Assembly: GCA_029259175.1 (NCBI GenBank)
Contig: JAPDJH010000004.1
Span: 1-64,000, forward strand
Source: Hadesarchaea archaeon
Lineage (GTDB): Archaea; Hadarchaeota; Hadarchaeia; Hadarchaeales; Hadarchaeaceae
Reading direction: 5' to 3'
Length of the DNA stretch: 64,000 nt
Part shown: positions 13,471-28,496 of the stretch, piece by piece
How positions within the stretch are numbered: position 1 is the first letter of the stretch
Layout: every line of letters starts with the position of its first letter
Position numbers and translations under genes: made by a program
Notes under the pieces: generated by a model
Database searches by the model: none
The model's input: the letters and a program-made list of their open reading frames with translations, nothing else
Told to the model about the DNA's origin: nothing

Positions 13471-13826
13471 AGCTGAAGCGCGAGCTCTTGGAGTTCCTGC
13501 TGGGAGCAGCGCGATCGGCTCATCCAAAAGAATTTGCCAGAGTGCTTAGGCGGAGAGGTGATACGATCGATGAGGTTTTGCTGGTTCCGGGGGCGGCGTC
13601 AGAGCGCTCCGCTTTGCTCCGAATCCACATGTTGCCCATAGATCCGTCAGTGGTGGGTACGGTTCACAGTCATCCGGGGCCCTCGGCCCTTCCGTCGGAT
13701 GAGGACTTGCGGTTTTTTGACAAGTTTGGAGCTGTGCACATCATAATTGCTTATCCGTACACTCAGGATTCCTGGGCGGCGTACAATCACCGGGGAGAGC
13801 GCGTAGAGCTCCAAGTGGTCGGCTGA
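13467..13826 (+). CDS. JAB1/MPN/Mov34 (JAMM) metallo-isopeptidase
   Basis: HPKE, GTVHSHPGPSALPSDED JAMM motif. Confidence 0.9.
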   Translation: MKLKRELLEFLLGAARSAHPKEFARVLRRRGDTIDEVLLVPGAASERSALLRIHMLPIDPSVVGTVHSHPGPSALPSDEDLRFFDKFGAVHIIIAYPYTQDSWAAYNHRGERVELQVVG

Positions 13827-13877
13827 AGGGCTGAACGCTTTTTTCCCTTTAAAACGGCCCCTGCGCAAAGCGAAAGC

Positions 13878-13981
13878 GAGGAATGAGTGGAGGGCAGGGG
13901 GATAATGGGTTTCTCATCCCCAGCCCAGCTTTGATAACACCTAAAAGAGGACTGAAAATTTACTTCCCACCTGAGTTCCTC
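13878..13981 (+). ncRNA. Candidate K-turn/C-D-like small RNA between convergent genes
   Basis: TTTAAAA at 13848-13854; terminal stem GAGGAAT/GTTCCTC; CTGA at 13952 and 13971; internal hairpin 13892-13926. Confidence 0.4.
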
Positions 13982-14007
13982 TCGAAGTTTCCGAAAACCG
14001 TCATTCT

Positions 14008-14217
14008 TCACTTCGTGAGAAGGTAAAGGACGAAAGAAAGCAGAGAAAGGATGAGGAGTAAGGGCGAGGTTATGAAATAGAAACCGTTTGAGCGGTACAT
14101 GTAGAGGATCCAGGAGGGAAGGTGGCCCACGTCGAAGTAGCGGACGAGCAGCGGGGCCGCCATGAGGGCCAGTCCGATCAGCACTAGGGCGAATCCCAGC
14201 AATGGGAGCGCATCCAT
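14008..14217 (-). CDS. Small membrane protein (DUF2905-like)
   Basis: Two TM helices with GHLP...NGFYFITSP loop. Confidence 0.6.
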   Translation of the reverse strand: MDALPLLGFALVLIGLALMAAPLLVRYFDVGHLPSWILYMYRSNGFYFITSPLLLILSLLSFVLYLLTK

Positions 14218-14228
14218 GACCGAGCCCC

Positions 14229-14912
14229 TCACAGGATCTGGTGCTCGTCCACGTGTCCGCCGCAGTACTTCCGGCCGTACAGGCTGATGCGCTCGATGGC
14301 GTGCTCCATGTTTTCGCGCGGGATTCCGGGGGCGTTCCAGAAGACCACCAAGACCGTTGAAGTGCCAAAAGTGATTTTTGGGACTTTCGAGTCGCCGATG
14401 GTGTACGCTGACACGATGCGCTGCTCGTCGCGCAGGATCACTTCGCCTGGTAGGGGGGCGAGCTTTCTGCCGTCGATCAAATCGAAGGGTTTCTCGTCAG
14501 GGCCTGCGAGGGTGGTCCGAACTCGGCCCTTGAGTCGCTGCACGTCGTAGACGCCGCCTGAGATCATCGACTCGACTGACGCCAGGAGGCAGGAGTCCAC
14601 CACGTTGTTTATGCGTGGGAACTTGCCCTCGAGGGCCCTCCGCAGCAGATACTCGGGGGCTGGTCGGTAGCTGGAGGGGTCGCGTCCGATTTGCTTGAAG
14701 AACGTCCGGTAGGCTTGGATCTCGGGGATTGCGCTTATCTCCGCGCCTTGGTGTTTTGACTGAAGCTCAGACACCACTTCGGCGATGCGGGCGTTCAGGG
14801 GCTCGACTTCTGGCTCCACCGTGACGCCGCTTATCAGCACGTAGCCGGCCAGAAATCCGGGGTAGCGCTCTCTGACTGCGGGATCGAGTTCCAGCGTGCT
14901 CATCACACTCAT
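14229..14912 (-). CDS. B3/B4 domain protein (PheRS-beta-like trans-editing factor)
   Basis: AYRTFFKQIGRDPSSYRPAPEYLLRR, PRINNVVD, GVYD, GEVILRD; start ATG 14912. Confidence 0.88.
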   Translation of the reverse strand: MSVMSTLELDPAVRERYPGFLAGYVLISGVTVEPEVEPLNARIAEVVSELQSKHQGAEISAIPEIQAYRTFFKQIGRDPSSYRPAPEYLLRRALEGKFPRINNVVDSCLLASVESMISGGVYDVQRLKGRVRTTLAGPDEKPFDLIDGRKLAPLPGEVILRDEQRIVSAYTIGDSKVPKITFGTSTVLVVFWNAPGIPRENMEHAIERISLYGRKYCGGHVDEHQIL

Positions 14913-15054
14913 ATCGCGGGTGCCGCTCTTAAGTGTTGGTATGGGGGTTGGGATTCCGCGCGCATGGGGCGCCAAAATCCGGAGGAAACTACGAACCTTC
15001 GGAGTTGTGTGTAAGGGACGCGGTGTGGGGTGCTGAAATGAAGAGCTGGTCCTA

Positions 15055-15345
15055 TCAACGGTGGACGCTCGCAACAGTTTGTGAGCGATGATGTCTAGAA
15101 CAATGTTGCTTGAGTGGTGTCTGACTACGAACCTTCGTAGTCCACTCTACGAGTTCGCGGGCGCGGTACACTCTCAGCTCACGGACTCCGAATTCCTTGA
15201 GCTTGGTTGCGAACTCTAGGGCGAGGCGCAGTTTGCGGAATTCGACGACTGACTGCTGAACGCGCTCGCCGCCGATCTCCTTCAGCTGGCGGTAATGCCA
15301 GCCGGAGAGGCCCCTTCCGCTTTTGTCGAAGATCACCAAGTACAC
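15055..15345 (-). CDS. Stand-alone Cas2-like (Cas2/VapD/PaaX-middle ferredoxin fold) small protein A
   Basis: YLVIFD first strand ending in Asp, GGERVQQSVVEF motif (Cas2 G..VQ.SVF), ~70-aa core. Confidence 0.7.
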   Translation of the reverse strand: MYLVIFDKSGRGLSGWHYRQLKEIGGERVQQSVVEFRKLRLALEFATKLKEFGVRELRVYRARELVEWTTKVRSQTPLKQHCSRHHRSQTVASVHR

Positions 15346-15371
15346 TCGAATCCGTTTCCCCTTGGGTGGTT

Positions 15372-15384
15372 GGTTACTTATAAA
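15372..15384. promoter_or_regulatory. GGTTACTTATAAA TATA motif between Cas2-like gene A and its repeat cluster
   Basis: 12/13 match to GGTTGCTTATAAA at 27110-27122 and 4250-4262. Confidence 0.55.
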
Positions 15385-15648
15385 GCGATAAATCGGTGAA
15401 CTACGAACCTTCGTAGTACAATCTAACCAGAATACGGAGATATGCAGTGCCTACTGCTCCCATGAGTGAAAGCCTGCTCTACGAACCTTCGTAGTGTTCT
15501 CGCCGCCGCCAGAACTACGAACCTTCGTAGTTGGATCTACCACCCTCGAAGCCCACACTATTCACACCCAGCTGCATGATGACTACGAACCTTCGTAGTC
15601 CCGCACAAACCCTAAAATTTTTCTCCCGGCGCGGCTGAAAACGAACTG

Positions 15649-16230
15649 ATGCGTCCCCTCCCGCGCGCCTTCTACGAGCGCCACCCCGCCCGCGTCGCCC
15701 GAGAATTGCTCGGCCACATCCTGCTGAGCCGGTCTGCGGGCATAACGACCTCCGGGCTCATCGTCGAAACAGAGGCCTACCTCGGCTGCAACGACCCCGC
15801 CTCGCGCGCCTCCTACAAGCGAACCCCCATGAACGAGATCATGTGGGGTCCCGGCGGACTCGCTTTTGTTTACATGGTCCACGGGAACAGGCTGTTCAAC
15901 ATCACGGCGAATCCCCCAGGCATCCCGGGCGCGGTCCTCATAAGAGCCGTGGAGCCGCTCGGAGGAATAGAAGCCATGAAATCGAGGCGACGGTGTGAAG
16001 ACCCCCGCTTGCTCACCTCTGGGCCCGGCCGATTGACCCAAGCGATGGGAATCGAAAAACGACACCACGGGAGCGACGTGACGGACCCAAAAAACGAAGT
16101 AGTGGTGGTCAGAGGCGCTGGAGGAAAGCTGGAAATAGCCTCGTCGCATCGTATCGGAGTCCGCGCCGACGCCGCTCGTCCGCTCAGGTTTTTCGTGAAA
16201 CACAACCCCTTCGTGTCCAAATCCAGATGA
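15649..16230 (+). CDS. mpg: DNA-3-methyladenine glycosylase (MPG/AAG)
   Basis: IVETEAYLG..DPAS, AFVYMVHG, AVLIRAVEP, SGPGRLTQAMGI, RIGV. Confidence 0.93.
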   Translation: MRPLPRAFYERHPARVARELLGHILLSRSAGITTSGLIVETEAYLGCNDPASRASYKRTPMNEIMWGPGGLAFVYMVHGNRLFNITANPPGIPGAVLIRAVEPLGGIEAMKSRRRCEDPRLLTSGPGRLTQAMGIEKRHHGSDVTDPKNEVVVVRGAGGKLEIASSHRIGVRADAARPLRFFVKHNPFVSKSR

Positions 16231-16666
16231 GAAACGAGGCACCGCCGGTCACAACGGGCAGCGCCCAATCGGTCGACTTGAGCAGCCCGAGCTGGAAGTC
16301 CCACACCCACACCACCGGAAACAGCAAAACCATCCCTCCAGCTGCGTGGACCAACAGGGAATCCAAGGCAAAGTGCGAGCAGACCCCCAGCATGATCCAG
16401 CACCAAGCACGAAAAGAATCTGTAAACCACAGAGCACCGACCCCCGCCACCAGAGCTGCTCCAACGAGAGTGTGGAGTGGGAGCACCAAATCGGCGACGT
16501 GGTAGCCCCACACGCGCCCTCCTAGGTACTGGAGCGCCGCGAGATCCGGGAAAACCGCCCCGAGCAGAACTAGCGCAATAACTCCGTTGCTCGGACGGCC
16601 AAATCTGAGCTGGAAGAGCTTGAGCGCGCACCACGGCACCAACACGTGAACTAAAAGATCTGGCAT
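16184..16666 (-). CDS. Membrane-bound metal-dependent hydrolase (YdjM-like)
   Basis: MPDLLVH, GAVFPD, LHT, SHFALD motifs. Confidence 0.8.
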   Translation of the reverse strand: MPDLLVHVLVPWCALKLFQLRFGRPSNGVIALVLLGAVFPDLAALQYLGGRVWGYHVADLVLPLHTLVGAALVAGVGALWFTDSFRAWCWIMLGVCSHFALDSLLVHAAGGMVLLFPVVWVWDFQLGLLKSTDWALPVVTGGASFLIWIWTRRGCVSRKT

Positions 16667-16667
16667 C

Positions 16668-17105
16668 TCACCCCTCCACCATGCGCCATCCGCGCGGTTT
16701 CCACGAGCGGAAAAACAGCAAAACCAAGAGGACTGCGCCTACCAGGGAGCGGGCAAACATCGCGTAAAAATCGGTTCTCGGATAAACGATCGCCTTCCGG
16801 GGCACCAAGGAATCATTTTCCTCGAGCGTGCCCAAAACTTCGACGAGATCCCCGATCGATGCTCGAACCTCACGAACCCGGATCGTCCCCGCCGAGGTGG
16901 AGAGCCACACTCCTCCTTCATCCCTCTCGGTAACCGTTCCATACACCAGCACCTCGGAGCCCACGTAGAGGGCCTTGCTTTCGGCGAGGTCGCGAACGGT
17001 CGGGTACGGAAAGTGGGAGTGGGCCGCCTCACCGCTGTACACGCACAGGAGGAAAAGCAGAGCGATCATCGCCGCAGCCGCCAGCGCCCGCCTCATAATC
17101 CCCAA
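16668..17105 (-). CDS. Hypothetical membrane protein with OB-fold-like domain
   Basis: TM - YVGSEVLVYGTV...GDLVEVLGTL - TM. Confidence 0.65.
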   Translation of the reverse strand: MGIMRRALAAAAMIALLFLLCVYSGEAAHSHFPYPTVRDLAESKALYVGSEVLVYGTVTERDEGGVWLSTSAGTIRVREVRASIGDLVEVLGTLEENDSLVPRKAIVYPRTDFYAMFARSLVGAVLLVLLFFRSWKPRGWRMVEG

Positions 17106-17135
17106 GAATTAAAGCAGGGATGCGTTTAATGAATT

Positions 17136-17414
17136 GTGATGAAGGCGAGGGCGCACGTGTGGATCAGCGGGCGGGTCCAGGGGGTCTTCTTCCGGTACCA
17201 CACGGAGCAGCTGGCCCGACGGCTCGGAGTCCGCGGATGGGTGCGCAACCTGCCGGACGGGCGTGTAGAAGCGGTGTTCGAGGGGACCAAAGACCGAGTG
17301 GACCAGATGATAGAATTCTGTCGCCGGGGCCCGCCAGCCGCTGTTGTCCGCCGTGTGGATGTGAAGTGGGAGACGCCTACGGATGAATTCCACGATTTTG
17401 AGATAAGGTGGTGA
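17136..17414 (+). CDS. acyP: Acylphosphatase
   Basis: [23 protein letters not shown]. Confidence 0.96.
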
Positions 17415-17433
17415 AACACTCAGCCGGAGGGAT

Positions 17434-17841
17434 TTGCTGACAGGGGCAGCTTCTGGAAAAATAAACTTGGATGGGACAGTAAGATTGCAACAAAAAGTGC
17501 TAGAAGGAGCAGAAATTTTCATACACTTGAAGGGGTACTCCAGAGCCCGAGTTACCCATCTCGATATCGAACATCCCGAACTCAAAATTCTGCCGCCAAA
17601 ACGCGGAAGATTTGCTACTCTTCAAAATGAGAAAAATGGATTAACGGTGAAAATCGGTGCCCAATGCCTAACACTAGAATGCTCTAGATTGAAGGACTTG
17701 CTCATCACATCTGAGAAAACGGTGGTGTGGGTGGGAGGAAAGACGGGTGGGCTTTACCTAGGATTTAAGCGCCCCTATGTGAAAAAGCTGGAGCTCCTAG
17801 CCGAAAAGCTGCTGAAGCTTGGAAGGCAGCTCGGCAAGTGA
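17434..17841 (+). CDS. Hypothetical protein
   Basis: 135-aa ORF filling the gap; HLKGY.RARVTHLDIEH and VGGK..GLYLGF look like conserved motifs. Confidence 0.6.
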   Translation: MLTGAASGKINLDGTVRLQQKVLEGAEIFIHLKGYSRARVTHLDIEHPELKILPPKRGRFATLQNEKNGLTVKIGAQCLTLECSRLKDLLITSEKTVVWVGGKTGGLYLGFKRPYVKKLELLAEKLLKLGRQLGK

Positions 17842-18444
17842 GCGAATCGTCCATCGCCCTGGGCTCTCTGCCTCCCTGTCCAGCAGGAGCGCGTGGGCCC
17901 TGGCCCGCCGCGGGATCTCGAAATCGTGAATCCGGTGGTCTCCCACGTGCAGCAACTCCGATGGCCGAACACCAAGCTCGACACACACCCGCGCGAAAAG
18001 CTCCGGGCGCTTCCCGACCACTCCGAAGTCCGAAACCGCTGAAAACGTGCGTCCAAAAAACCCATCCAGTCCGCTGCCCTTTATCCCGAGCTCCACGAAC
18101 TCCCGCGCTGCAGCCGAAACAACCACCAACCGGTATCGCTGCCCGAGCACGGGCAAAACCGACGGCACTTCGGGATACGGCCGGGCCAAATGCCTGTACC
18201 GCTCCAGCAACCCGCTCCAAGATCCCGACAGACCAAACCTGTCGAACCAGTACTGGGGCTTGTACCACTCGATCCGCTCCGGCCCGACCTCATCGTACGC
18301 CCGCTTGACCCTCTCCAAGGCCTCCTCAAAAGACACCTTCCACCGCTCCGAGCAGAGTTTTGGAATCCCCTCGAACCACACGGCGTCAGCAAAGTTCTTG
18401 ATCACCAGAGTGCCATCCATGTCAAACGAGAGGACCTTCAACAT
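17797..18444 (-). CDS. HAD-superfamily hydrolase
   Basis: FDMDGTL, KRP, HVGD...D motifs. Confidence 0.9.
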   Translation of the reverse strand: MLKVLSFDMDGTLVIKNFADAVWFEGIPKLCSERWKVSFEEALERVKRAYDEVGPERIEWYKPQYWFDRFGLSGSWSGLLERYRHLARPYPEVPSVLPVLGQRYRLVVVSAAAREFVELGIKGSGLDGFFGRTFSAVSDFGVVGKRPELFARVCVELGVRPSELLHVGDHRIHDFEIPRRARAHALLLDREAESPGRWTIRSLAELPSKLQQLFG

Positions 18445-18455
18445 GGTTCGGACCT

Positions 18456-18944
18456 TTAGAACTCCCGAGATATGTAGACCTGCCCCGAGCGAGCCACCTC
18501 TCTGAGGACCTCGGGGCCCAGCGAGCGCAGCAGGCGCTCGATCTGGTCGTGCTCGCCCGAAATCTCGGCAATTATCGCCCCCTCCCTCGAATCGATTATC
18601 TTGCCTCCGGCGCGCTCGATCTGTTCCACTATCCGCCAGTGCTGGTCAGGGGGGAGGGGATTCGTTTTTATCAGCGCCACCTCCCGAACCACGCTGTCCT
18701 CCGGCTCTATCACCTCAACGGCCTCGATCGGCTCGAGCTTCAACAAGATGTGCCGCAACAGCTCGGTGTGCTTGTCATCGGCTTTGAACATCAGGATTAT
18801 GCGAGCAAGTCCCGATGGCTCGATCCCCACCGTAATGGAATCGATGTTTATCTGTCTGCGTGTGAACACGCGCGTTATGCGCATCATCACGCCCGGAGCG
18901 TTCTGACAGAGGATCGAGAATATCCGATTCTTCACCTCCACCAC
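18456..18944 (-). CDS. ilvH: Acetolactate synthase small (regulatory) subunit
   Basis: NAPGVMMRITRVFTRRQINIDSITVG ACT domain, REVALIK, EVARSG. Confidence 0.93.
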   Translation of the reverse strand: MVEVKNRIFSILCQNAPGVMMRITRVFTRRQINIDSITVGIEPSGLARIILMFKADDKHTELLRHILLKLEPIEAVEVIEPEDSVVREVALIKTNPLPPDQHWRIVEQIERAGGKIIDSREGAIIAEISGEHDQIERLLRSLGPEVLREVARSGQVYISREF

Positions 18945-18945
18945 C

Positions 18946-20628
18946 TCACGTCAGGATCGGTTCGTCCAGCCTCCCGCCAGCTGGCACCATGGGCAGGACG
19001 TGTTCGTCCGGATCCACCACTATGTCCAGAACGGCCGGCTTACCGCTTTCCATCGCCTCCCGAAGCTTGGGACCTATCTCGCTTGGCTTTGACGCCCGAT
19101 CTCCCCACGCACCGTATGCCTGAGCAAGCTTGGCGAAGTCGGGTGTCTTCCCCAGATAGGTCTGCGATCTGCGCTTCCCGAAGAAAAGATCCTGCCACTG
19201 CTTGACCATGCCCAGATAGCTGTTGTTGAAGATGCACACAACAACCGGGATGTCGTTTTCGACCGCCGTGGCCAGCTCCTGCGAGTTCATCAGAAAGCTG
19301 CCATCGCCTGCGATGTCGATCACCGGATGATCTGGACAGGCAACCTTTGCCCCGATGGCCGCTGGAAAACCAAAGCCCATCGTGCCCAGACCGCCCGAGC
19401 TTATGAAGTGCCTGGGACGCCTGACCCGATAGAAGTGGGCGGCCCACATCTGACACTGCCCCACCTCCGTTGTTATGATGGCATCCGGGCCTGCAACCTC
19501 CATTATTTCCTTTATTGCGCGCTGGGGTTTGATCGGGACATCGTCGTAGTCCATCCGGGGAGCCAGATTGCGACGCAGGGAGTTCACGCGCTCCAGCCAC
19601 TCACTGGTTCTCCCCTTCCGCAGGTGCTGCTTCAGCGCTTCGATTATGGCTCGGAGAGCCCGCTTGGCATCCGCAACAATGGCGTGATCCACACGAACGT
19701 TCTTCCCGATCTCCGCGGCGTCTATGTCGATGTGGACCACCTTGGCGCGGGGGGCAAAATGGTGCACGTCTCCCGTGGCACGATCGCTGAATCGGACCCC
19801 CACCGCGAAGAGCAGATCGCATTCAGTGACTGCCAGATTGGCCACCATCCGGCCGTGCATTCCGAGCATGCCCAAGGCCAGCGGGTGATCCTCGGGTATT
19901 GCCCCCTTCCCCAGCAGCGAAGTGGTGACCGGGGCCTGCAAAAGCTCCGCCAGCTCGATCAGCTCGGGAGAGGCCCCCGACCATATCACGCCGCCGCCCG
20001 CATAGATCACCGGCTGCCGGGCGTGTACGAGCAACTCCACCGCGCGCGTCACTTCGGACGGGGTGGGATCCAGCTTGAGCGGCTTGCGGTACTCCACCTT
20101 GGCCGGGATTTCCAGCTCGGCTTTCGACAGCTGGACATCCTTCGGCAAATCTATGTGGACCGGGCCGGGACGACCGGTCGTAGCAATCGCGAAAGCCATT
20201 CGGAAGACCTCGGGCAGCTCCTCTATGCGGTGAACTATGAAGTTGTGCTTGGTGATGGGAAGCATCAGACTCAGCATGTCCGCTTCCTGAAAGGCGTCCG
20301 TGCCGATGGCCGTGGTGCTGACCTGCCCCGAGATCGCGATCACCGGAGAGCTATCCATGTAGGCGTTGAGAATGCCCGTCACGAGATTGGTCGCGCCGGG
20401 GCCCGACGTTGTCATGCACACGCCCGGGCGGCCGGACGCGCGGGCATAACCGTCTGCAGCGTGGGCGGCGGCCTGCTCGTGCCGGGTCAAAATGTGAGTG
20501 ATCTCCGTTTCGCCGTAGAGGGCATCGTAGGTGGAAATGATGGCCCCGCCTGGAATCCCGAACACGTGCTTGACCCCTTCAGCCTTCAAACACTCCCACA
20601 CGGCTTTGGCTCCAGTCATTTCGGCCAT
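18946..20628 (-). CDS. ilvB: Acetolactate synthase large subunit
   Basis: FGIPGG, RHEQAAAHAADGYARASG, SGGLGTMGFG, GDGSF...NN ThDP motif. Confidence 0.97.
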   Translation of the reverse strand: MAEMTGAKAVWECLKAEGVKHVFGIPGGAIISTYDALYGETEITHILTRHEQAAAHAADGYARASGRPGVCMTTSGPGATNLVTGILNAYMDSSPVIAISGQVSTTAIGTDAFQEADMLSLMLPITKHNFIVHRIEELPEVFRMAFAIATTGRPGPVHIDLPKDVQLSKAELEIPAKVEYRKPLKLDPTPSEVTRAVELLVHARQPVIYAGGGVIWSGASPELIELAELLQAPVTTSLLGKGAIPEDHPLALGMLGMHGRMVANLAVTECDLLFAVGVRFSDRATGDVHHFAPRAKVVHIDIDAAEIGKNVRVDHAIVADAKRALRAIIEALKQHLRKGRTSEWLERVNSLRRNLAPRMDYDDVPIKPQRAIKEIMEVAGPDAIITTEVGQCQMWAAHFYRVRRPRHFISSGGLGTMGFGFPAAIGAKVACPDHPVIDIAGDGSFLMNSQELATAVENDIPVVVCIFNNSYLGMVKQWQDLFFGKRRSQTYLGKTPDFAKLAQAYGAWGDRASKPSEIGPKLREAMESGKPAVLDIVVDPDEHVLPMVPAGGRLDEPILT

Positions 20629-20673
20629 GCGACCCCAAAAGGTATTGACAAGATGGTTAAAAAATGAGCGGAG

Positions 20674-21009
20674 TTAGATAACTGGCGGTTGCGGATATCC
20701 CGGAGCAAACCTCACCGGGGGCTTGAACGAGGGAGAAACGATCACGCCATTGGTCTGGATAAAGCCCCGCCCGAAGCGCAGGAAGGCGCCAGGGTTTTCC
20801 ACCACTTCGAACGGCCACAACAGAACTTCTCCCAAAACCTCGACTTCCAGATATTTTCGCCTGCTGCCCGGAGAGACCTCCATCCCTAATCTTTGGAGTA
20901 GCTCGCTGGACACCTGCTCGGACTCTGCATCGGTGTCAAACTCGGCCTCCACTTTCTTCCACTTGCCTGTCCCCGACTTTACCTTCACTTTCCACCTGAC
21001 GCGAGCCAT
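20674..21009 (-). CDS. Hypothetical protein, degenerate retropepsin-like fold
   Basis: AEFDTDA and FGRGFI resemble the ALxDTGA and LGRDFL motifs. Confidence 0.5.
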   Translation of the reverse strand: MARVRWKVKVKSGTGKWKKVEAEFDTDAESEQVSSELLQRLGMEVSPGSRRKYLEVEVLGEVLLWPFEVVENPGAFLRFGRGFIQTNGVIVSPSFKPPVRFAPGYPQPPVI

Positions 21010-21719
21010 CACGACCCCACTCTCGCGGAAAACGTGAACCGATACCGCCTGCGCCCGTCCTTGGTCTGCCCGACGAGCTTCCTGCTCTGTTTGATAGAGA
21101 GCCCATTCCTTCTCAAAAACGTTGCCAGCTTTCGAGCCAGTCTGAGGGAGCTGGTGTAGAGATCCCAGCCGTTTTTGACCCTATCCACTTTGACAACAAA
21201 ATCGCGCGAGGTCCGCTCGCTCTCGGCCTGCGCGAGCACGCGATCGAGCACTCTCCTCACGTCCCTCTCCCCCCGGAGCTGGATTATGGCCTCGTAGTGC
21301 CCGCCGTGGAGGAGAGAACAATCGGGACACGTCTGCTCCACCACTCTCAGCTCCACGGTCTTGCGCTCTTCAAATACTGGTGCTCCCGCCGAGTGCCTAG
21401 CAATGAGGGTGACGATTCCCCTCCTCAGATCGGGTATGACCTCGAGAGAGAAATGGGAGGAAGAAATGGATCTCGGTGTTTTCCCATCGATTGTGGGATT
21501 GAGCTTGACTTGGCGCGAAATCTCGCGGATCAGAGCCGCTCGGTCTCTTGACCACCGCCCCCCAGATCTCACAGCGCCACACACCCTGCACGCAGTCACA
21601 ACTATCCTCGAGGGAACTTCCAAAACCCGCAACCGCTGGGAAAGACAGCGGGGACACAATCCCTCCACCAAGCGAGCAGTTGCTTTCTCGACCGCGCCAC
21701 ATCCATAGCAGAACTTCAT
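21009..21719 (-). CDS. nmd3: NMD3-family protein
   Basis: Four CxxC pairs, CPDCS..GGHYEAIIQLR, GWDLY, KLVGQ. Confidence 0.88.
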   Translation of the reverse strand: MKFCYGCGAVEKATARLVEGLCPRCLSQRLRVLEVPSRIVVTACRVCGAVRSGGRWSRDRAALIREISRQVKLNPTIDGKTPRSISSSHFSLEVIPDLRRGIVTLIARHSAGAPVFEERKTVELRVVEQTCPDCSLLHGGHYEAIIQLRGERDVRRVLDRVLAQAESERTSRDFVVKVDRVKNGWDLYTSSLRLARKLATFLRRNGLSIKQSRKLVGQTKDGRRRYRFTFSARVGS

Positions 21720-21825
21720 GGCCCCAGAGAAAATCGGTGAACTGGAGTTTAAACCGTTGGTTTCGGTGCCAGGGGAGAGACGGTAGGATTAAAATCGAGC
21801 ATAACTCAATCATCACGGTGAAAAC

Positions 21826-23712
21826 TTGCGTCTGCTGCTGATCCATGCGGACTACTTGGAATTCGAAGTGAAACAGCCGACCGCAGTGGCTGAGGAGATC
21901 CCCAAGGAAAAACAGAAGGGGAGATTCGAAGAAGCCCTGGTGGTGTTCACGGCCGTCGAGGAGACGGATGAACAAAACGAAGACCAAGTGGTGCAACAAG
22001 CTGCTGCGGAAATAAAGAAACTCGTCGAACAAATCAAGGCCGAACGTGTGGTGCTGTATCCCTATGCCCACCTCAGCCCTTCGCTGGCTTCCCCGAGCGC
22101 TGCGGTGCGAGTCCTGGACAAGCTGCGTGAAGCCGTCCGCGATTTCGGTCTCGAGGTGTACCGCCTCCCCTTCGGATGGTATAAGGGATTCAAGCTCAGC
22201 TGTAAGGGGCATCCCCTGAGCGAGCTCTCCAAACACATCACCGGAGAGAGAGTCGAAGGAACAGCTGCCCTGCGAGAGGAAGAGCGAGTAAGCTCAACCT
22301 GGTACGTAATGGAGCCCGATGGAAGCATGCACGAACTGAAGCTGGAAGGGGAGGAAGTCAAGGGATACGATTTCACGGGGAAGGAAAACCTCAGGGTGTT
22401 CGCGCTTCACGAAATGGCTAGGCGGAGAGAGGCCGTGGGCGAGCCGCCCCACGTGGATCTCATGCGCAGACTCGAGCTGGTGGACTACGAGCCGGGGAGC
22501 GACTCCGGAAACTTCAAATTCTATCCAAAGGGGAGGTTGCTCAAACGCCTGCTCGAGCGATGGGTGGGGATGCGCGTGGCAGAGTACGGGGCGATGGAGG
22601 TGGAGACCCCCATCATGTACGATTACCACCACCCGGCGCTCAAGGACTATCTGGAGCGATTCCCCGCCAGACAGTACACGCTCAAGTCCGGCAAACGCAA
22701 GTTCTTCCTGCGCTTCTCCGCGTGCTTCGGTCAGTTCTTGCTTCTCTCGGCCTCTACCATTTCCTATCGCCAGCTCCCGCTCCGGATGTACGAGCTCACG
22801 CGGTACTCGTTCAGGCTCGAGCAGAGCGGGGAGCTCTCTGGTCTCCGGAGGTTGCGATCCTTCACCATGCCCGATATGCACACCCTGTGCCGGGACATCG
22901 AACAAGCGAAGGAGGAGTTCAGGCGTCAGTTCGAGCTCAGTATGCGCTGTCTGAGCGAGCTCGGATTTACTACCGATGACTACGAGACGGGGATACGGAT
23001 GACGCAAGAGTTCCTGGAAAACCATCGAGATTTCGTGGAGGGGCTCGTGCGACTCGTTGGAAAACCGGTTTTGTTGGAGGTGTGGAACCGCCGGTACGCC
23101 TACTTCGATCCAAAGTTCGAGTTCAACTTTGTGGACGCGATCGGGAAGGCCTCGGCGCTGTCCACGGTGCAGATGGATCACGAAAACGCCGATCGCTACG
23201 GCATATTCTACGTTGATGAGCACAACCAGCGCAGGCATCCAATCATTCTGCACTGTTCTCCGACGGGGAGCATCGAGCGCGTGGTTTACGCCATGCTCGA
23301 GCGTGCGTATAAGGAGCAGCAACGCGGAAGGGTTCCGGAGCTGCCACTGTGGCTCGCACCCACGCAAGTGCGCATAATCCCGCTGGCGGACCGGCATCTA
23401 GAGTTCTGCGAAAAGCTGGCGGACGAGCTCGAGCGCGCGCGGATCAGAGTGGACGTGGACGACCGCGCGGAAACGGTCGCGAAGAAGGTGCGCGAGGCCG
23501 AGCGGGAGTGGGTGCCGTACATAGTCGTGGTCGGAGATCAAGAAGTCCAGAGCGGTGTCCTCCAAGTCCGGGTGAGGAGCTCGCGAGACATCCGGAAGCT
23601 CGGCATAGACGGGTTGAAGCGCGAAATCCGGGAAAAGGTCGAGAATCTGCCGTACGAGCCCCTTTCTCTTCCACGCCGGTTATCCGCGCGTCCCGTGTTC
23701 GTGGAGGCGTGA
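21826..23712 (+). CDS. thrS: Threonyl-tRNA synthetase (archaeal type)
   Basis: MRLLLIH, YPYAHLS, FGWYK...CKGHPLSELS editing domain; RFSACFG; HCSPTGSIER. Confidence 0.97.
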   Translation: MRLLLIHADYLEFEVKQPTAVAEEIPKEKQKGRFEEALVVFTAVEETDEQNEDQVVQQAAAEIKKLVEQIKAERVVLYPYAHLSPSLASPSAAVRVLDKLREAVRDFGLEVYRLPFGWYKGFKLSCKGHPLSELSKHITGERVEGTAALREEERVSSTWYVMEPDGSMHELKLEGEEVKGYDFTGKENLRVFALHEMARRREAVGEPPHVDLMRRLELVDYEPGSDSGNFKFYPKGRLLKRLLERWVGMRVAEYGAMEVETPIMYDYHHPALKDYLERFPARQYTLKSGKRKFFLRFSACFGQFLLLSASTISYRQLPLRMYELTRYSFRLEQSGELSGLRRLRSFTMPDMHTLCRDIEQAKEEFRRQFELSMRCLSELGFTTDDYETGIRMTQEFLENHRDFVEGLVRLVGKPVLLEVWNRRYAYFDPKFEFNFVDAIGKASALSTVQMDHENADRYGIFYVDEHNQRRHPIILHCSPTGSIERVVYAMLERAYKEQQRGRVPELPLWLAPTQVRIIPLADRHLEFCEKLADELERARIRVDVDDRAETVAKKVREAEREWVPYIVVVGDQEVQSGVLQVRVRSSRDIRKLGIDGLKREIREKVENLPYEPLSLPRRLSARPVFVEA

Positions 23713-23713
23713 A

Positions 23714-24850
23714 ATGAAATCGCCGGCCTTGCGGGCCGTGGTGATGCTCGGAATCGTGAGCCTGCTGGGTGACATCATATACGAGGGATCCAGGGGGCTC
23801 ATTCCGGAATATCTGAGATTCCTCGGTGCCTCTGCACTCGTAGTCGGGACAGTGATGGGGGCGGGTGAGCTAGTAAGCTATGCCGTACGATTGGCGAGCG
23901 GGGTGCTGGCAGACACCACCAGGCGTTACTGGGGACTGACGTTCTTGGGCTACGGGTTGATCATAGGGATTCCGCTGCTGGCCCTCGCCCACAGCTGGCA
24001 GCTGGCGTTGGCGTTCATATTGGTGGAGAGGCTGGGGAAAGCCATACGAACCCCTGCCAGAGACGTTATTCTGGCTGCAGCATCGCGAGGGGTCGGAAAA
24101 GGAAAGGCATTCGGAATACACGAATTCATGGATCAGCTGGGAGCGGTGACTGGGCCTCTGATCGTTGCCGGGCTGGTGTGGGGGACCGGAAGCGATTTCT
24201 CGCTGGTCTTCGGAGCTCTGCTCGTGCCCTATCTGGTGATGCTGGCCTCGTTGATCAGAGCCAAGCGGAACATTGGAGAAATCGGATGGGAGAGAAAAGA
24301 AAGAAAAGCGAAAGTTGGTGCCGGAGCGTTTGTCACCTATACGGCGGCCGTGGGGCTCAACACGCTTGGTCTGATTCCGGCTGCACTCATCTTATACAAG
24401 ACAGCGGGAATGGTTGCTGCCGCTTGGATCGTTCCACTCGTCTATGCCCTCATCCAGATCGTTGATGCTCCCGTGGCGCTCCTGGCGGGGTACGCATACG
24501 ACCGGGTCGGGAGACGTATGCTCCTGCTCCCATTTGCGCTCGCCGTTGTGCCGTCTGTTCTAGTACTTGCCTCTGAAAGCATCGGGGTGATTCTGGTGGC
24601 GGCAATGGTGTTTGGTGCAGTGCTCGGGATGCAGGAGTCCATATATCGGGCGGCCGTGGCAGAGCTGGTACCGGCGGAGAAACGCGGGCGTGCTTACGGG
24701 GTGTTCCACACCGTGTATGGTGTGGCCCTGCTGGGAGCGGGAGCGATGTTTGGGTGGATGCTGGACGCGGGTGCCGGGCTGGCGGTCGGACTGCCCTATG
24801 TGTGCGGGGTTCAGATCACGGCGATTCTGTTGCTCGTTAGGACTCTATGA
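23714..24850 (+). CDS. MFS transporter
   Basis: SGVLADTT, ERLGKAIRTPARD, GYAYDRVGRR, RGRAYG; about 12 TM. Confidence 0.9.
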   Translation: MKSPALRAVVMLGIVSLLGDIIYEGSRGLIPEYLRFLGASALVVGTVMGAGELVSYAVRLASGVLADTTRRYWGLTFLGYGLIIGIPLLALAHSWQLALAFILVERLGKAIRTPARDVILAAASRGVGKGKAFGIHEFMDQLGAVTGPLIVAGLVWGTGSDFSLVFGALLVPYLVMLASLIRAKRNIGEIGWERKERKAKVGAGAFVTYTAAVGLNTLGLIPAALILYKTAGMVAAAWIVPLVYALIQIVDAPVALLAGYAYDRVGRRMLLLPFALAVVPSVLVLASESIGVILVAAMVFGAVLGMQESIYRAAVAELVPAEKRGRAYGVFHTVYGVALLGAGAMFGWMLDAGAGLAVGLPYVCGVQITAILLLVRTL

Positions 24851-25125
24851 CGTTTCTCTGACTTGACGTTCATCGGGAGCCCGCGCGAGATCGAGGCGGC
24901 CATGCGCTCCAGACGTGCCTGCTTGACCACCCTGCGCTTGAATGCCAAGTAGAACCCGAGCGAAGCTCCCAGCGAGATCATGACGACTACGGCGAAAACC
25001 GCTGAAAGCTCTGAGAGGCCGAGACCGGAGGGGATCACCGAGACCCACAGGACGGCGACCATCGCAGCGGAAACTGCTAGGGTTATCCCTACTATGGCTA
25101 GGAGTTCGGCCGTGCTTGCGCGCAC
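24811..25125 (-). CDS. Small 2-TM membrane protein
   Basis: Two hydrophobic helices; downstream of 25139-26221 on the same strand. Confidence 0.5.
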   Translation of the reverse strand: MRASTAELLAIVGITLAVSAAMVAVLWVSVIPSGLGLSELSAVFAVVVMISLGASLGFYLAFKRRVVKQARLERMAASISRGLPMNVKSEKRHRVLTSNRIAVI

Positions 25126-25138
25126 CTCGAGCCCCTCC

Positions 25139-26221
25139 TCAGTAGCGGCGGAGAACGATCTGTCGGGTCGCGGCGATGCTTATCAAAGCTGCAACTATGG
25201 CGGCGGCGAGCACCGTGAGCCACGGGATCACTTGTACCAGACCGATCGCTCCGAGCACTCCGATCTTCGGGTCGTGGACAATGCTGGTTCCGCGCTCATA
25301 GATCAAGTAGAGCTCCCGGTCGCCCTCCTCGACGTCATGGATGAGCTCGGTGGACAGAACCGGACGCTCAACACCATCTACGAGGGCCGTGTCCTTCCAA
25401 GAGAAGAAGCCGCCGAAACCACCGGACTTGATCTCGATCTCTGTTTCCCGTTCGAACTCCTTGGATTTCACCTCCTCCTCGATTTCGCGTTCGCTTTTCA
25501 GCTCGGTCTTCAGCGCGAGCTTAGAGTCAGTCCGAGTGTACGGGAAGTTGTTGATCTCCACGGTGATCTTGGCCTCGTTGGGAGTTATGTTTTCACCGTC
25601 GAGAGTCACCGGCTGGCCAGAAGAATAGAGAATCGCCTTGAAAACACCGTCCGTGGTCTGAACGGTGATCTTGTGCACTTGAACTCCGTTCACGTTTTCC
25701 ACAGTGTACTGCAGGGGTGCGAAGCTCGCATGTTTCAGGTCGTAGGTGTAGACGGCTTCTCCGGGATCGTATACGCCGTCGTTGTCGTTGTCGACGAATT
25801 CTACAATGGAGTCGAACTCGGCTTCAAATTCGAGTTCGATTTCACGCTCGATCTCCACGTTGTCCGCGAGCTCGAACTCCGTGGAGAACTCCAGCCGGAA
25901 CTCGACGCCCTCGTCCGTATCCACCCGCAGCTTGATCTCGTCTTCTATTCGACCGGGTTCGGTTTCGCTGTAATTCTTGGCTTTGATTTCAACGCGGTCC
26001 GTCTCGACTTTGATCTCGATTTCTCGCTCTTCCTTTTCGATATCGTGTTCTTCGTCGACCTCATGTTCGATGTCAGAAGTTTCCTTGGGAGCGGGTGTTT
26101 GGTTTTCAGCGATGTCGGGGAGTTCGTCGGGTTCCTCCTTGCCCAGCGTCGGGACGGGGGCGAACGCTGTTGTCAGGAGTACGGCGCACAGGACCCATGC
26201 GACCACTTTTGCCGTTTTCAT
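25139..26221 (-). CDS. Acidic secreted protein with C-terminal membrane anchor
   Basis: Signal peptide, Glu-rich segments, DNDNDGVYD Ca-binding-like loop, IVHDPKIG, C-terminal TM. Confidence 0.8.
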   Translation of the reverse strand: MKTAKVVAWVLCAVLLTTAFAPVPTLGKEEPDELPDIAENQTPAPKETSDIEHEVDEEHDIEKEEREIEIKVETDRVEIKAKNYSETEPGRIEDEIKLRVDTDEGVEFRLEFSTEFELADNVEIEREIELEFEAEFDSIVEFVDNDNDGVYDPGEAVYTYDLKHASFAPLQYTVENVNGVQVHKITVQTTDGVFKAILYSSGQPVTLDGENITPNEAKITVEINNFPYTRTDSKLALKTELKSEREIEEEVKSKEFERETEIEIKSGGFGGFFSWKDTALVDGVERPVLSTELIHDVEEGDRELYLIYERGTSIVHDPKIGVLGAIGLVQVIPWLTVLAAAIVAALISIAATRQIVLRRY

Positions 26222-26437
26222 TTTTTACCACCTCCGAGAGGCAAGTATGACCAAAAGGGAGATATAAAAAATCTCGGACAAATTTTCATCGAGCTGGCAA
26301 AATACAAGTGTTTATCGTTCAGATCTAGAAAAAGGGGCGAAAAATCGTTCAGAAACTTGCACGAAGTCAAAGGAGAGTGGAAAAACAACAAATCCCAAGA
26401 AATTTAAGAAATCGCGATATCAGGGTTTTAGGGACTC

Positions 26438-26878
26438 ATGAAGCTTGTCGAAGTGCTCTCAGTTATTCTGATAGCGCTCATAGTGGCCATTTTGAGCGGA
26501 GTGGTTCTGTTCGGTGTGCTGGGCATTGCGCCAGACATCGAGCCGAGCATGATCGCGTTTGCTATGCTAGTGATGATGGCGATCACCGTAGGATCAACCC
26601 TAGTCTTCTACGTGGCGTTCACACGGTACGCCGCAGAACGGGCGGTACGCGTAGCGATGCTGGCGCTGAGCGAGGACGAGCGAGCGGTGCTCCAGAAGCT
26701 CATGGAGTTCGGAGGTGAGGTTCGCCAGGAGGATCTGTGGCGAAAGCTACGGGATCGGTACTCCAAGTCTAAGCTGAGCGCGCTCGTCATCAACTTGGAG
26801 CGGAAACACGTGCTCACGCGGCAACGGTAGTATCGGACAAACTTGCTAAGGTTGACTCCTGAGTTTAGGAGGAAATGA
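26438..26878 (+). pseudogene. Membrane-anchored winged-HTH regulator interrupted by in-frame TAG at 26828-26830
   Basis: 2 TM + LSEDERAVL...VRQEDL...SKSKLSALVINLERK; the frame continues after TAG as YRTNLLRLTPEFRRK-TGA, completing the wing. Confidence 0.6.
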
Positions 26879-27085
26879 CAAAGGTTTGTCATCGGAACGC
26901 AGGGGCACCACGAGCGCCCGCCCTCCGTTAGAATTGACGAGTTCGGCGAGCGCGCGGCACTGCTCAGGATTCTCCAGCTTCCACACGGACTGCTGGATCT
27001 GCTCGGCTCTGCACTGGTGGAGCTTTCGATTGAGCCTCAGCGCATTGTTTGTCCCGCAGATATCGTACACCAGCAGGTACGGCAT
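26846..27085 (-). CDS. Stand-alone Cas2-like small protein B
   Basis: MPYLLVYDI (canonical Cas2 start), LNRKL, QIQQSVW; GGGAG upstream of the ATG. Confidence 0.75.
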   Translation of the reverse strand: MPYLLVYDICGTNNALRLNRKLHQCRAEQIQQSVWKLENPEQCRALAELVNSNGGRALVVPLRSDDKPLSFPPKLRSQP

Positions 27086-27300
27086 CTCCCACGATCGCTT
27101 TGCGCTGAAGGTTGCTTATAAAGGAACAATAGAGCGGATGCTGGAATGACAAAGGTTTGTCACTCACTAAGCCACACTCCCACGATAAAGGTTTGTCAAA
27201 GACCGGCTGTGACAAAGGTTTGTCATCCGCTAGAAAAGTCAAGCTCTCATGACAAAGGTTTGTCAAAGCTCAGACACCAGTTGCGACAAAGGTTTGTCAT
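26875..27300. repeat. Array B: six copies of 16-bp palindrome TGACAAAGGTTTGTCA
   Basis: Copies at 26876-26891, 27147-27162, 27183-27198 (CGATAAA variant), 27210-27225, 27250-27265, 27284-27299 (first base C); spacers 20, 11, 24, 18 bp. Confidence 0.95.
27106..27122. promoter_or_regulatory. TATA motif between Cas2-like gene B and its repeat cluster
   Basis: TGAAGGTTGCTTATAAA; 20 bp from the gene start on -, 24 bp from the first repeat on +. Confidence 0.6.
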
Positions 27301-27314
27301 CCGTCAACGGGCAG

Positions 27315-28496
27315 CTACTCTCTCCCCAGCAGCAGCCTCATAAACTCCGGCCCCTCCACAAATCCCAGCGACCCCTGCGCACCCGCCCGCTCACAAAACG
27401 CCAGCCCGTCTCCTCTCTCTCCCGGCCTGTAAATCACGAAAGGAATCGGATCCGATGTGTGAACTTTTTTCGAAACGGGCGTCGGGTGATCCGGCAGCAC
27501 CGCAATCGTGCACCCCTCGGCCCGCTCAACTATCGGACCCACCAATCTGCGATCGAACTCCTCGAGCACGCGCACCTTCCGCTCGGCACTCCCCTCGTGA
27601 CCCGCCTCGTCCGGCGCTTCAACGTGCACGTACACCAGATCATTTCTTTCCAGAGCCTTGAGCGCGTGATCGGCCTTCCCCTCGTAGTTGGTGTCGTAGT
27701 AGCCCGTGGCCCCGGGCACGTCAACGATTTCCATTCCCGCATAAACACCTATCCCCTTGATCAGCAGAACCGCGGAAATCATCGCCCCCTGGATTCCGTA
27801 CCGCCGCTCAAAGGGCTCGAGCCGCGGCCTTGGACCAGGACTCCACAACCATATCATGTTGGCCGGTCTCTTCCCTTCCTCCCTCCTGCGCCGGTTCACC
27901 GGGTGCTCCGAGAGCACGTCCCGCGACCGCAGCATCAGCTCGTTCAACCGCTTTCCGAGCCCACCCGCCTCTGGCGGTATGAGGTGTTCATCTATCGCCT
28001 CCCCCACTATGTTGTGCGGTGGCGTGCACCCAAGCGTAATCTCGGCACCGCGAACCACGAAGATATGTCTGTAGCTCACCCCGACAAAGAACTCTCCAAC
28101 CCCCAGCTTCGCAACCTCTCGGAGGAGCTCCCTGGCCTCTCCCGTGCTCACGTGCCCCGCCGAATAGTCCACCATCCGTCCGCCCTCCACCGTCACCAGA
28201 TTGCACCTGAAAGCCACATCGCGCTCGCCCAGCCGGACACCCATCGCCCCCGCCTCCAGCGGTCCGCGTCCCGTGTAGTACCGCCTCGGATCGTATCCCA
28301 GAATCGAGAGATTGGCAATCGAGGAATCCGGCTCCATCCCCTCCGGAATCGTTTTTAACATCCCCATTCTCCCATGCCCTGCAAGCCAATCCATATTGGG
28401 AGTGTCGGCGGCCTCGAGGGGTGTTCGGCCACCCAGCTCCTCAACCGGATAATCAGCCATTCCGTCCCCAACGATCACTACGTACTTCACCCGCAT
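27315..28496 (-). CDS. apgM: Cofactor-independent phosphoglycerate mutase (ApgM family)
   Basis: IVGDGMAD, TPLEAADTPNMD, GRGPLEA, HVEAPDEAGH, PDHPTP, HTSDPIP; start ATG 28496. Confidence 0.92.
   Translation of the reverse strand: MRVKYVVIVGDGMADYPVEELGGRTPLEAADTPNMDWLAGHGRMGMLKTIPEGMEPDSSIANLSILGYDPRRYYTGRGPLEAGAMGVRLGERDVAFRCNLVTVEGGRMVDYSAGHVSTGEARELLREVAKLGVGEFFVGVSYRHIFVVRGAEITLGCTPPHNIVGEAIDEHLIPPEAGGLGKRLNELMLRSRDVLSEHPVNRRRREEGKRPANMIWLWSPGPRPRLEPFERRYGIQGAMISAVLLIKGIGVYAGMEIVDVPGATGYYDTNYEGKADHALKALERNDLVYVHVEAPDEAGHEGSAERKVRVLEEFDRRLVGPIVERAEGCTIAVLPDHPTPVSKKVHTSDPIPFVIYRPGERGDGLAFCERAGAQGSLGFVEGPEFMRLLLGRE

Follow-up and report, generated by a model that had tools for sequence, protein, structure and literature searches.

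What is the relation between a very small Cas2-like protein and the palindromes that surround its gene? This question is raised by two loci, here called modules A and B, that lie 12 kb apart in a window of 64,000 nucleotides (positions 1 to 64,000 of contig JAPDJH010000004.1, assembly GCA_029259175.1 of a Hadesarchaea archaeon). The initial annotation of this window described them as diverged protein-repeat pairs of an undescribed system, and left open a repetitive extragenic palindrome (REP)-like element, a toxin with a repeat-encoded RNA antitoxin (like a type III toxin-antitoxin (TA) system) and an operator array. We followed both modules through the whole assembly (G000; 1.31 Mb in 23 contigs, 91% complete, with the window on contig C2), through related genomes and through large protein collections. 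Protein and palindrome are genuinely linked and evolve together, and among the mechanisms left open the evidence leans to operator-like recognition of a dyad site in duplex DNA.

Motif matching against shuffled sequences confirmed the position of both palindrome families. Family A (CTACGAACCTTCGTAG on the plus strand) has exact copies at 15125, 15401, 15479, 15515 and 15583, with 0.02 expected from shuffles, and family B (TGACAAAGGTTTGTCA on the plus strand) has exact copies at 26876, 27147, 27210 and 27250, with 0.00 expected. Inexact B copies are found at 27284 (one mismatch) and 27183 (two mismatches). When the minus strand was read, the two modules showed the layout proposed for them, that is, a minus-strand Cas2-like open reading frame (ORF), a TATA motif, four to five palindromes upstream and one palindrome in the 3' end of the ORF. 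A sixth, degenerate A copy downstream of gene A, at 14989, goes beyond that account. The TATA-like boxes are located about 37-39 nt ahead of the start codons of genes A and B, and every upstream site of both modules lies upstream of the box. An Rfam scan of positions 13000-29000 gave no match. The two palindromes had also been said to differ by six letters that form three compensatory pairs. The arithmetic is right (symmetric pairs at positions 1/16, 2/15 and 5/12), but the alignment sets A in gene orientation against B in anti-gene orientation; with both in gene orientation, the central dinucleotide differs too (GG versus CC).

Proteins A and B are homologous (pairwise alignment, 26% identity over 77 residues, E 1e-5). 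In Pfam, B obtained a sub-threshold match to Cas2 (PF09827; 19.6 bits versus a gathering cut-off of 23.8) and A no match at all, and neither protein matched NCBIfam. The predicted structure of B (mean predicted local distance difference test, pLDDT, 80) has the element order E-H-E-E-H-E. We compared it with the PDB using Foldseek and found that all four matches with E <= 0.001 were Cas2 proteins (3exc, 2ivy, and 5h1o chains A and B). Most of the next 20 matches were Cas2 as well, with 1zpw and 2i0x among the top, and VapD (6zi1) stood at rank 39. Judged from this model, protein B has the Cas2 fold at the superfamily level, in agreement with the fold first claimed. Protein A is placed in the fold by alignment and profile (E 8.9e-19), the structure model being that of B only.

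Word-indexed searches returned just three relatives of B and one of A. An exhaustive profile search of 1.84 billion representatives returned 77 proteins at E <= 0.001, most of which have 66-75 aa and match profile positions 1-65. Thus the conserved core has about 68 residues, and the palindrome-bearing C-terminal tails of A and B are not conserved in the family. When 65 members were aligned, conservation of at least 90% was seen at D8 (end of strand 1), R20, L22, A27 and S33, and in an alignment of five sequences Q31, S33 and V34 are invariant and form a Q-x-S-V motif in strand 2. The strand-1 Asp, kept in at least 90% of the 65 members, is the metal-binding position of Cas2; D-to-N, D-to-Y and D-to-S variants exist. 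The suggested likeness to PaaX and Cas2 was also checked by scanning single members: Cas2 was matched by 22 of 65 at E <= 0.01, PaaX_M (PF20803) by 14 and ChrB_N (PF20229) by 8, all weakly, the best E values of the latter two being about 2e-6. PADLOC models of Cas2 cover only the first 40 or so residues of the family proteins. By their sequences, these proteins make up a distinct mini-family of the Cas2 superfamily, for which Pfam holds no curated model. A homodimer prediction for the 68-aa core scored 0.16 (mark 0.42), which counts neither for nor against dimerization. When viral contigs were scanned with one member (P0007), a single 17-residue match was obtained and disregarded. In a metagenomic relative of B (P0002), the N-terminal 54 residues match B, whereas the remainder is similar to the C-terminal part of the gene that converges on B (window 26438-26830); this suggests a rearrangement at the junction of B and its neighbour in another strain.

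The family profile matched 43 places in 26 of 41 related genomes, and at E <= 1e-5 the family occurs in 36 of 66 genomes of the archaeal phylum. For each of the 43 loci, the best recurring 16-mer quasi-palindrome was sought within 500 bp on either side. A private palindrome in at least two copies, usually 3-9, accompanies 30 of the loci. By the raw criterion of at least three copies, the figure is 29 of 43, versus 2 of 150 random windows of 1220 bp drawn from G000 outside the known arrays (exactly two copies were found in 11 of these 150). The two or three poor copies at L037, L038 and L041 were judged to be due to chance, being GC-rich, poorly palindromic, and inside or far from long ORFs. 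Ten loci have at most one copy; three of these (L030, L031, L040) show imperfect or half sites by eye. Five weak profile matches in long ORFs (388-479 aa) are without palindromes and may represent a larger type of regulator.

The sites recur at similar positions relative to the profile match, namely at -4..-27 or -65..-104 and at +201..+265. The last of these lies at or just after the stop codon, and several loci have a palindrome whose first letters are the TGA stop or that comes immediately behind this stop. Other subfamilies have a site across the start codon or between the TATA box and the domain, and in several subfamilies both flanking palindromes are within the predicted transcript. A promoter and leader are also common to the family: TTTATAAG is followed by CCaCcCAAAg, then by GGCGGG and then by the start codon. 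From this recurrence it seems that promoter, gene and sites are passed on together as a unit.

Our correlation analysis showed that protein distance and palindrome distance are associated over the 30 loci (Mantel r = 0.615); none of 5000 permutations reached this value, a result that is not to be read as a probability because the loci are related to one another. Protein-site pairs are kept across genera. For example, TGTCCTAWWTAGGACA goes with near-identical proteins in G006, G007, G014 and G017, TGGCGAACGTTCGCCA is found in G004, G016 and G028, TTGCGAACGTTCGCAA in G015, and TGTCACA(C/G)CTGTGACA in G005 (twice) and G014. A given palindrome occurs only in genomes with the matching gene: TGTCACACCTGTGACA has 15 copies in G005 and 12 in G014 (counted by strand, at most one mismatch) and zero in G000, G001 and G006, which lack that protein type. 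The complementary test agrees. No other gene is common to the module neighbourhoods examined. The initial idea of diverged protein-repeat pairs has therefore survived on all three points at which it could have failed: homologues elsewhere carry palindromes of their own, the palindromes are tied to the genes rather than scattered through the genomes (gene-less arrays are paralogues of gene-linked ones), and the fold is that of Cas2. Comparison of the sequences indicates that the protein very probably recognises its cognate palindrome.

The form of the site was analysed in 144 copies from 30 loci, which are not independent of each other. Two 7-bp half-sites are inverted around a 2-bp centre (7-2-7, 16 bp), and 873 of 1008 arm pairs are Watson-Crick. 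The mismatches have no strand bias, with 53 G.U versus 45 A.C on the sense strand. Of the 144 centre dinucleotides, 82 are self-complementary (25% would be expected), and positions 7/10 are A/T in 139 of 144 copies. A centre of 2 nt cannot serve as the loop of a hairpin. The half-sites vary independently (TGAYAYA; TGTCYYA), and one non-complementary combination of arms, TGTCTCAAATAGGACA, is kept in four genera. Thus, the pair statistics suggest that double-stranded DNA is recognised by a symmetric dimer. The copies do not form a tandem array of equal units; their spacing ranges from 16 to more than 100 bp.

The whole-genome scan for the consensus that had been proposed was run together with an unbiased count of 7-2-7 palindromes and locally clustered 12-mers in G000, in which copies within two mismatches were accepted (three for F7). 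It yielded four further clustered families, F3, F4, F6 and F7 (Table 1), and a few stray A- or B-like sites; copy numbers are 6-16 per palindrome family. A family gene found by profile search, C16:6501-6689, is located within the largest F3 array. Another one, at C7 about 6860-7149, has F4 copies at its 3' end and downstream and is broken by an in-frame TAG, and a third, intact-looking one (C8:40580-40858) has no evident palindromes. Gene-less F4 or F3 arrays lie at C1:41363-41569, C14:4048-4326, C2:168904-169157 and C2:187630-187781. The 18-bp palindrome F7 flanks a 98-aa HTH_23 gene (C3:183165-183461, minus strand), with five copies upstream and one just past the stop; this gene is unrelated to the mini-Cas2 family, yet its layout is that of modules A and B. 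The F7 locus (C3:183136-183873) adjoins a ribonucleotide reductase gene. F6 flanks two paralogous 112-aa ORFs, with the palindrome inside the N- and C-terminal coding parts; the two copies (C5:1-600 and C9:42950-43489) are 80% identical over 549 bp and both lie at contig ends. Despite the similar layout, the F6 ORF (C5:44-382) was not counted as a family member, because the profile comparison (E 0.1) was not significant.

The statement that each locus uses only its own palindrome needs to be qualified, since the families are not wholly confined to their loci: C1:31306 and C1:216516 are A-like sites, and C2:200704 matches B exactly. The solitary site at C1:31306, which has one mismatch, has the same sequence as the degenerate copy at window 14989. 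It is upstream of an AbrB/SpoVT-like gene, at a distance of about 125 bp, and a weak match to a tyrosine recombinase is 2.8 kb away. The exact B 16-mer at C2:200704 is inside a transcription factor B (TFB) gene, where it encodes HDKGLS, which we take to be a conserved motif of TFB. Relatives without B have versions of this 16-mer with two mismatches, presumably also within TFB. For these two reasons the site was set aside as a target of B, being probably a coding coincidence. The TFB gene (C2:198953-201415) also carries a LAGLIDADG-type intein, just before the 16-mer. In addition, an AT-rich palindrome, TGTTATAAATATAACA, has six scattered copies (C2:97596, C6:64084, C6:71108, C6:73048, C8:27762 and C8:27797).

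Modules and arrays differ in their presence even between close relatives. The B3/4-domain gene and mpg are divergent and about 62 bp apart in G001, a genome of the same genus, versus 727 bp in G000; module A fills this gap in G000 and is not present at that site in G001. Similarly, the distance from the MFS-type (major facilitator superfamily) gene to apgM is 16-20 bp in the same-genus genomes G002 and G003 versus 2.46 kb in G000, where this stretch includes module B. The number of profile matches per same-genus genome is five in G000, two in G001, one fragment in G002 and none in G003, and in-frame stops interrupt 10 of 54 matches in the phylum. The spacer between ADHS and aroA holds an F4 array in G000, and its orthologues in G002 and G005 hold none; the idea that this array marks an aromatic amino-acid regulon was dropped for this reason. 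In G005 and G014, three remote sites are gene-less units of two palindromes with homologous flanks.

The arrays are paralogous, and their spacers are included in this paralogy: C14 and C1 are 75% identical over 219 bp, C1 and C7 93% over 60 bp, and C16 and C2:168.8k 91% over 86 bp. Between the C1 and C14 arrays, 78 of 80 palindrome columns are identical versus 75 of 125 spacer columns; thus the sites are conserved and the spacers drift. No target-site signature and no identical recent copies were seen for the modules or arrays. Strain variants were found among contigs assembled from sequencing runs, in which RNA starts, ends and strand are unreadable. One DNA contig (run X8, depth 2.5) joins 15399 to 15514, so that 114 bp with two A repeat units are skipped; the joint shares 18 letters. 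DNA contigs of two other studies join 24834 to 26629 or 26633, and this skip of about 1.8 kb is a strain-level deletion polymorphism beside module B. Two small genes for membrane or secreted proteins fall within the deletion, together with the 5' part of a gene with transmembrane segments and a winged helix-turn-helix (DUF7343). Bins 25231-26224 were uncovered in the runs, which is uninformative. An RNA-library contig spans 14987-15780, that is, gene A and its array, which is no proof of transcription; the ends of RNA-library contigs at palindromes (14987, 15583) are attributed to assembly breaks at repeats. Near-identical DNA also occurs in runs labelled as hydrothermal-vent and marine-sediment metagenomes. 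The ThrRS of the host, an uncultured archaeon, shares no more than 59% identity with that of any named record.

Eight loci of one subfamily have a conserved gene, X (about 107 aa), ahead of the Cas2-like gene. The family-type promoter is then upstream of X, and a palindrome lies in the intercistronic gap. Gene X has the signature MxLIHYQTLE...LTWVxYDEGNGG... and no match in Pfam, PADLOC, PHROGs or the protein atlas. The copy in G000 (C15:2300-2617) is followed by a decayed, internally deleted remnant of a mini-Cas2 gene. Modules A and B have no partner gene.

Table 1. Coordinates of modules A and B, further palindrome families of G000 and an example of gene X. Positions are those of the window unless a locus is named.
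Feature	Position	Strand	Remark
Degenerate family-A palindrome CTACGAACCTTCGGAG, outer end of module A	14989..15004		1 mismatch; 51 nt past the stop of gene A
Gene A, 96-aa mini-Cas2-fold protein, GTG start	15055..15345	-	core about residues 1-68, tail not conserved; profile E 8.9e-19
Family-A palindrome in the tail of ORF A, right behind the conserved domain	15125..15140		positional equivalent of the stop-codon palindrome of relatives
TTTATAAG, TATA-like box of gene A	15377..15384	-	followed by the family-wide 5' leader motif (CCACCCAAG...); relatives have similar boxes and leaders
Upstream array A, four exact palindromes (15401, 15479, 15515, 15583) with unique spacers	15401..15598		between gene A and divergent mpg
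Stretch with module B and three other small genes, between MFS-type gene and apgM	24851..27314		2.46 kb; without counterpart in G002 and G003
Gene B, 79-aa mini-Cas2-fold protein, ATG start	26846..27085	-	profile E 4.2e-23
Family-B palindrome in the tail of ORF B, right behind the conserved domain	26876..26891		motif match
TTTATAAG, TATA-like box of gene B	27115..27122	-	minus-strand reading
Upstream array B, five palindromes (27147, 27183, 27210, 27250, 27284) with unique spacers	27147..27299		ends 16 nt from the apgM stop
Palindrome family F3, TGTCCCATATGGGACA			16 copies
Palindrome family F4, CTACGATAAATCGTAG			16 copies, 14 in three arrays; the other 2 are solitary 2-mismatch matches
Palindrome family F6, CTAGACACGTGTCTAG			6 copies
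Palindrome family F7, CTACACACCCCTGTGTAG			6 copies
Gene X, example	L029:1739-2062	-	one of 8 loci

The host has a CRISPR-Cas (short palindromic repeats that are clustered and regularly interspaced) system of the canonical kind, and the mini-Cas2 modules are separate from it. This locus (C1:214330-220160) contains 19 copies of a 37-nt repeat that is unrelated to the palindromes and has a spacing of 69-76. Its Cas1 (C1:216916-217788, E 5.6e-82) and a canonical Cas2 (63.4 bits) are encoded on C1; the Cas1 domain is part of a 505-aa ORF, possibly a fusion. The A-like site at C1:216516, which differs by one mismatch and has a degenerate second copy, lies between the CRISPR array and the 3' end of cas1. 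Modules A and B adjoin neither cas1 nor a CRISPR array of constant period. A search for the Y1/IS200-type transposase (PF01797) found no match anywhere in the 91%-complete assembly G000, and tyrosine recombinase domains were found only at C1:119k, C2:147k and C1:28k. It is thus correct, as first noted, that the 64 kb contain neither cas1 nor Y1; cas1, cas2 and the array of 19 repeats lie on C1.

We tentatively prefer the reading that a dimeric Cas2-fold protein recognises dyad sites round its own gene and autoregulates, within an accessory module that duplicates. A protein with a core of about 68 residues and the Cas2 (ferredoxin-like) fold would act as a homodimer on its own 16-bp duplex site. 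The sites bracket the gene, with at least one at or upstream of the promoter or start and at least one at or after the stop, and their occupancy may throttle or insulate transcription of the protein itself. Promoter, gene and sites, and arrays of sites alone, are accessory DNA that is duplicated to new intergenic places by a putative driver. The copies diverge in specificity together with the protein and are often lost or pseudogenised. Dyad-symmetric sites at or near the protein's own promoter are what a dimeric DNA-binding autoregulator would have. However, several points weigh against this reading. The Cas2 fold is, to our knowledge, not known as a sequence-specific reader of DNA, and the conserved strand-1 Asp would fit an enzyme better than a pure binder. 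Up to nine near-identical sites per array, a gene-less array in a convergent, terminator-side spacer (C14:4048-4326) and arrays that are not conserved in orthologous spacers are all unusual for operators. A clear array is missing from 13 of 43 loci, including the intact-looking C8 copy in G000, and the Mantel and pair statistics treat related loci as independent.

An enzyme would act differently. A metal-dependent nuclease or nickase of Cas2 fold may cut its cognate palindrome and thereby copy or move palindromes, arrays and its own gene, much as has been proposed for REP-associated tyrosine transposases (RAYTs) and their REPs. The conserved Asp at the catalytic position of Cas2 speaks for this explanation, as do the gene's own palindrome on both sides, the occurrence of several paralogues in a genome, each having a repeat class to itself, the gene-less intergenic clusters, and the paralogy of arrays down to their spacers. 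So do the presence or absence of modules and arrays between relatives, the variant that lacks two repeat units (15399 to 15514, one contig at depth 2.5), the lack of a Y1 transposase in the genome that could do the job instead, and the ending ...GTAG of families A, F4, F6 and F7. However, GTAG is paired within the palindrome here and is an unpaired tag in REPs, and REPs number tens to thousands, far from the 6-16 copies per family per genome found here (both REP traits as given in PMC3733652). Symmetry through the centre and independent half-sites point to a duplex and not to the single-stranded hairpins of HUH-type enzymes. Target-site signatures and identical recent copies were not seen, and array paralogues that are 75-93% identical imply that dispersal is old. 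We therefore regard the REP-like explanation as unlikely, although it is a serious competitor. Its strongest version, in which a minimal Cas2-fold enzyme specifically recognises and cuts or joins its own 16-bp palindromes and so propagates arrays and itself as a new self-contained element without Cas1 or transposase, seems quite unlikely.

Alternatively, the protein may act on RNA, as an endoribonuclease of VapD/Cas2 type and possibly a toxin. The palindromes would then be hairpins of the mRNA or of an array transcript, serving as a type III-like RNA antitoxin or as sites of processing or stability, and in one subfamily gene X would be a protein antitoxin. The conserved X upstream keeps a VapX-VapD-like reading alive for that subfamily: X stands ahead of the Cas2-like gene in the eight loci, with a palindrome in the intercistronic gap, and vapX-vapD is the same gene order. 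Both flanking palindromes are inside the predicted transcript in several subfamilies, the RNA-library contig 14987-15780 covers gene A and its array (without proving transcription), and, as in TA systems, paralogues are many, the distribution is patchy and pseudogenes are frequent. VapD is also among the fold matches (6zi1, rank 39), and Cas2, its homologue, is thought to derive from TA toxins (PMC3150331). Against this stand the lack of strand bias in the G.U and A.C counts (53 versus 45), the non-complementary arms kept across genera and a centre that is too often self-complementary for a loop. In modules A and B the arrays are placed upstream of the TATA-like box of the gene itself and a partner gene is lacking, and X has no Pfam, PADLOC or PHROG match. 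The spacing of 16 to more than 100 bp also differs from ToxI, which consists of tandem repeat units of constant length. Action at the RNA level is thus improbable in our judgement. It could also be that the palindromes are sites of another host factor or structural DNA and merely tend to adjoin Cas2-like genes, as the gene-less arrays (C1:41363-41569, C14:4048-4326, C2:168904-169157), the link of F7 to an HTH gene and the 13 of 43 loci without clear arrays might suggest. But each protein clade has its own palindrome with correlated distances, the palindrome is not present in genomes without the cognate gene, and the neighbourhoods examined share no other gene, which makes a mere passenger highly improbable. 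An adaptive array like CRISPR, in which unique spacers are acquired and the mini-Cas2 serves uptake without Cas1, is already disfavoured. The Cas2 fold and the unique spacers between repeats agree with it, but the 16-bp repeats are irregularly spaced (16 to more than 100 bp), spacers are inherited with the array between paralogous copies, no Cas1 is adjacent, and the real CRISPR of the host has an unrelated 37-nt repeat at a regular spacing of 69-76. Such a function is hardly credible.

The biochemical role of Cas2 itself outside CRISPR has long been unclear. The family offers a stand-alone, minimal Cas2 fold with a co-evolving nucleic-acid partner of 16 bp and about 20 natural specificity variants, so that recognition by the bare fold, and its action after binding, can be tested directly with short oligonucleotides and proteins of about 70 aa. 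If duplex DNA is bound, this would be a new scaffold for reading DNA, and its specificity code would come ready-made; if DNA is cut or moved, it would be a new kind of small mobile element in archaea. A self-propagating element would be an archaeal functional analogue of REP-RAYT on a Cas2 scaffold, and a living example of a repeat-associated ancestor of Cas2 from which the CRISPR adaptation module could have recruited it. We searched the open-access literature on Cas2-like proteins with palindromes in archaea, archaeal REP/RAYT and non-CRISPR Cas2 homologues, and found no description of such a module.

Among known systems, Cas2 (PF09827) shares with the mini-family the terminal Asp of strand 1, the Q-x-S-V of strand 2 and the small size. 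The mini-family differs in its core of just about 68 aa, of which the model matches roughly the first 40 residues near or below cut-offs, in its position away from cas1 and CRISPR arrays, and in the private 16-bp palindromes that flank the gene. The middle domain of PaaX (PF20803) and the N-terminal domain of ChrB (PF20229) give weak sequence matches and are examples of a Cas2-like domain within a transcription regulator. In those regulators it belongs to a larger protein that has a DNA-binding domain besides, whereas the mini-Cas2 domain stands alone. Small autoregulated dimeric DNA binders with arrays of repeated sites are known from plasmid ParR/parC, omega, TA antitoxins and archaeal Lrp-type regulators. 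The modules resemble them in the short gene, the several dyad sites round its own promoter and the 7-2-7 geometry typical of dimers, and the HTH gene of G000 resembles them in layout as well. None of these families, as far as we know, uses the Cas2 fold; the mini-Cas2 modules also differ in the nearly universal site at the stop codon and in arrays that also occur at a great distance from genes and lack conservation between orthologous spacers.

In type III TA systems such as ToxIN, direct RNA repeats of one constant length stand in tandem immediately upstream of the toxin gene and are co-transcribed with it. The mini-Cas2 loci have 16-bp palindromes with varied unique spacers instead, which are upstream of the TATA-like box in A and B and also downstream of the gene in other subfamilies. 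The mini-Cas2 family resembles VapD-VapX in its small protein of the Cas2 superfamily and in its multi-copy, patchy and often degraded occurrence, and one of its subfamilies has a small conserved gene upstream. It differs in that a partner is lacking for A and B, no known family is matched by X, and the palindromes bracket the Cas2-like cistron rather than the promoter of an operon alone. An origin of Cas2 from VapD-like toxins has been proposed on sequence similarity alone (PMC3150331).

In bacterial REP-RAYT systems (REPtrons, REPINs), too, a single small gene is flanked by cognate palindromes, and each paralogue has its own repeat class (PMC3733652). Gene-less intergenic clusters and presence or absence between relatives are further points in common. 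However, the protein here has a Cas2 fold and not the HUH/Y1 transposase fold, the Y1 domain was not found in G000, and copies are few compared with tens to thousands. In PMC3733652, GTAG REPs are reported from no phyla but bacterial ones, and the host here is an archaeon. The mini-Cas2 sites are fully dyad-symmetric, including their centre, and in this they differ from the palindromes of REP-RAYT systems.

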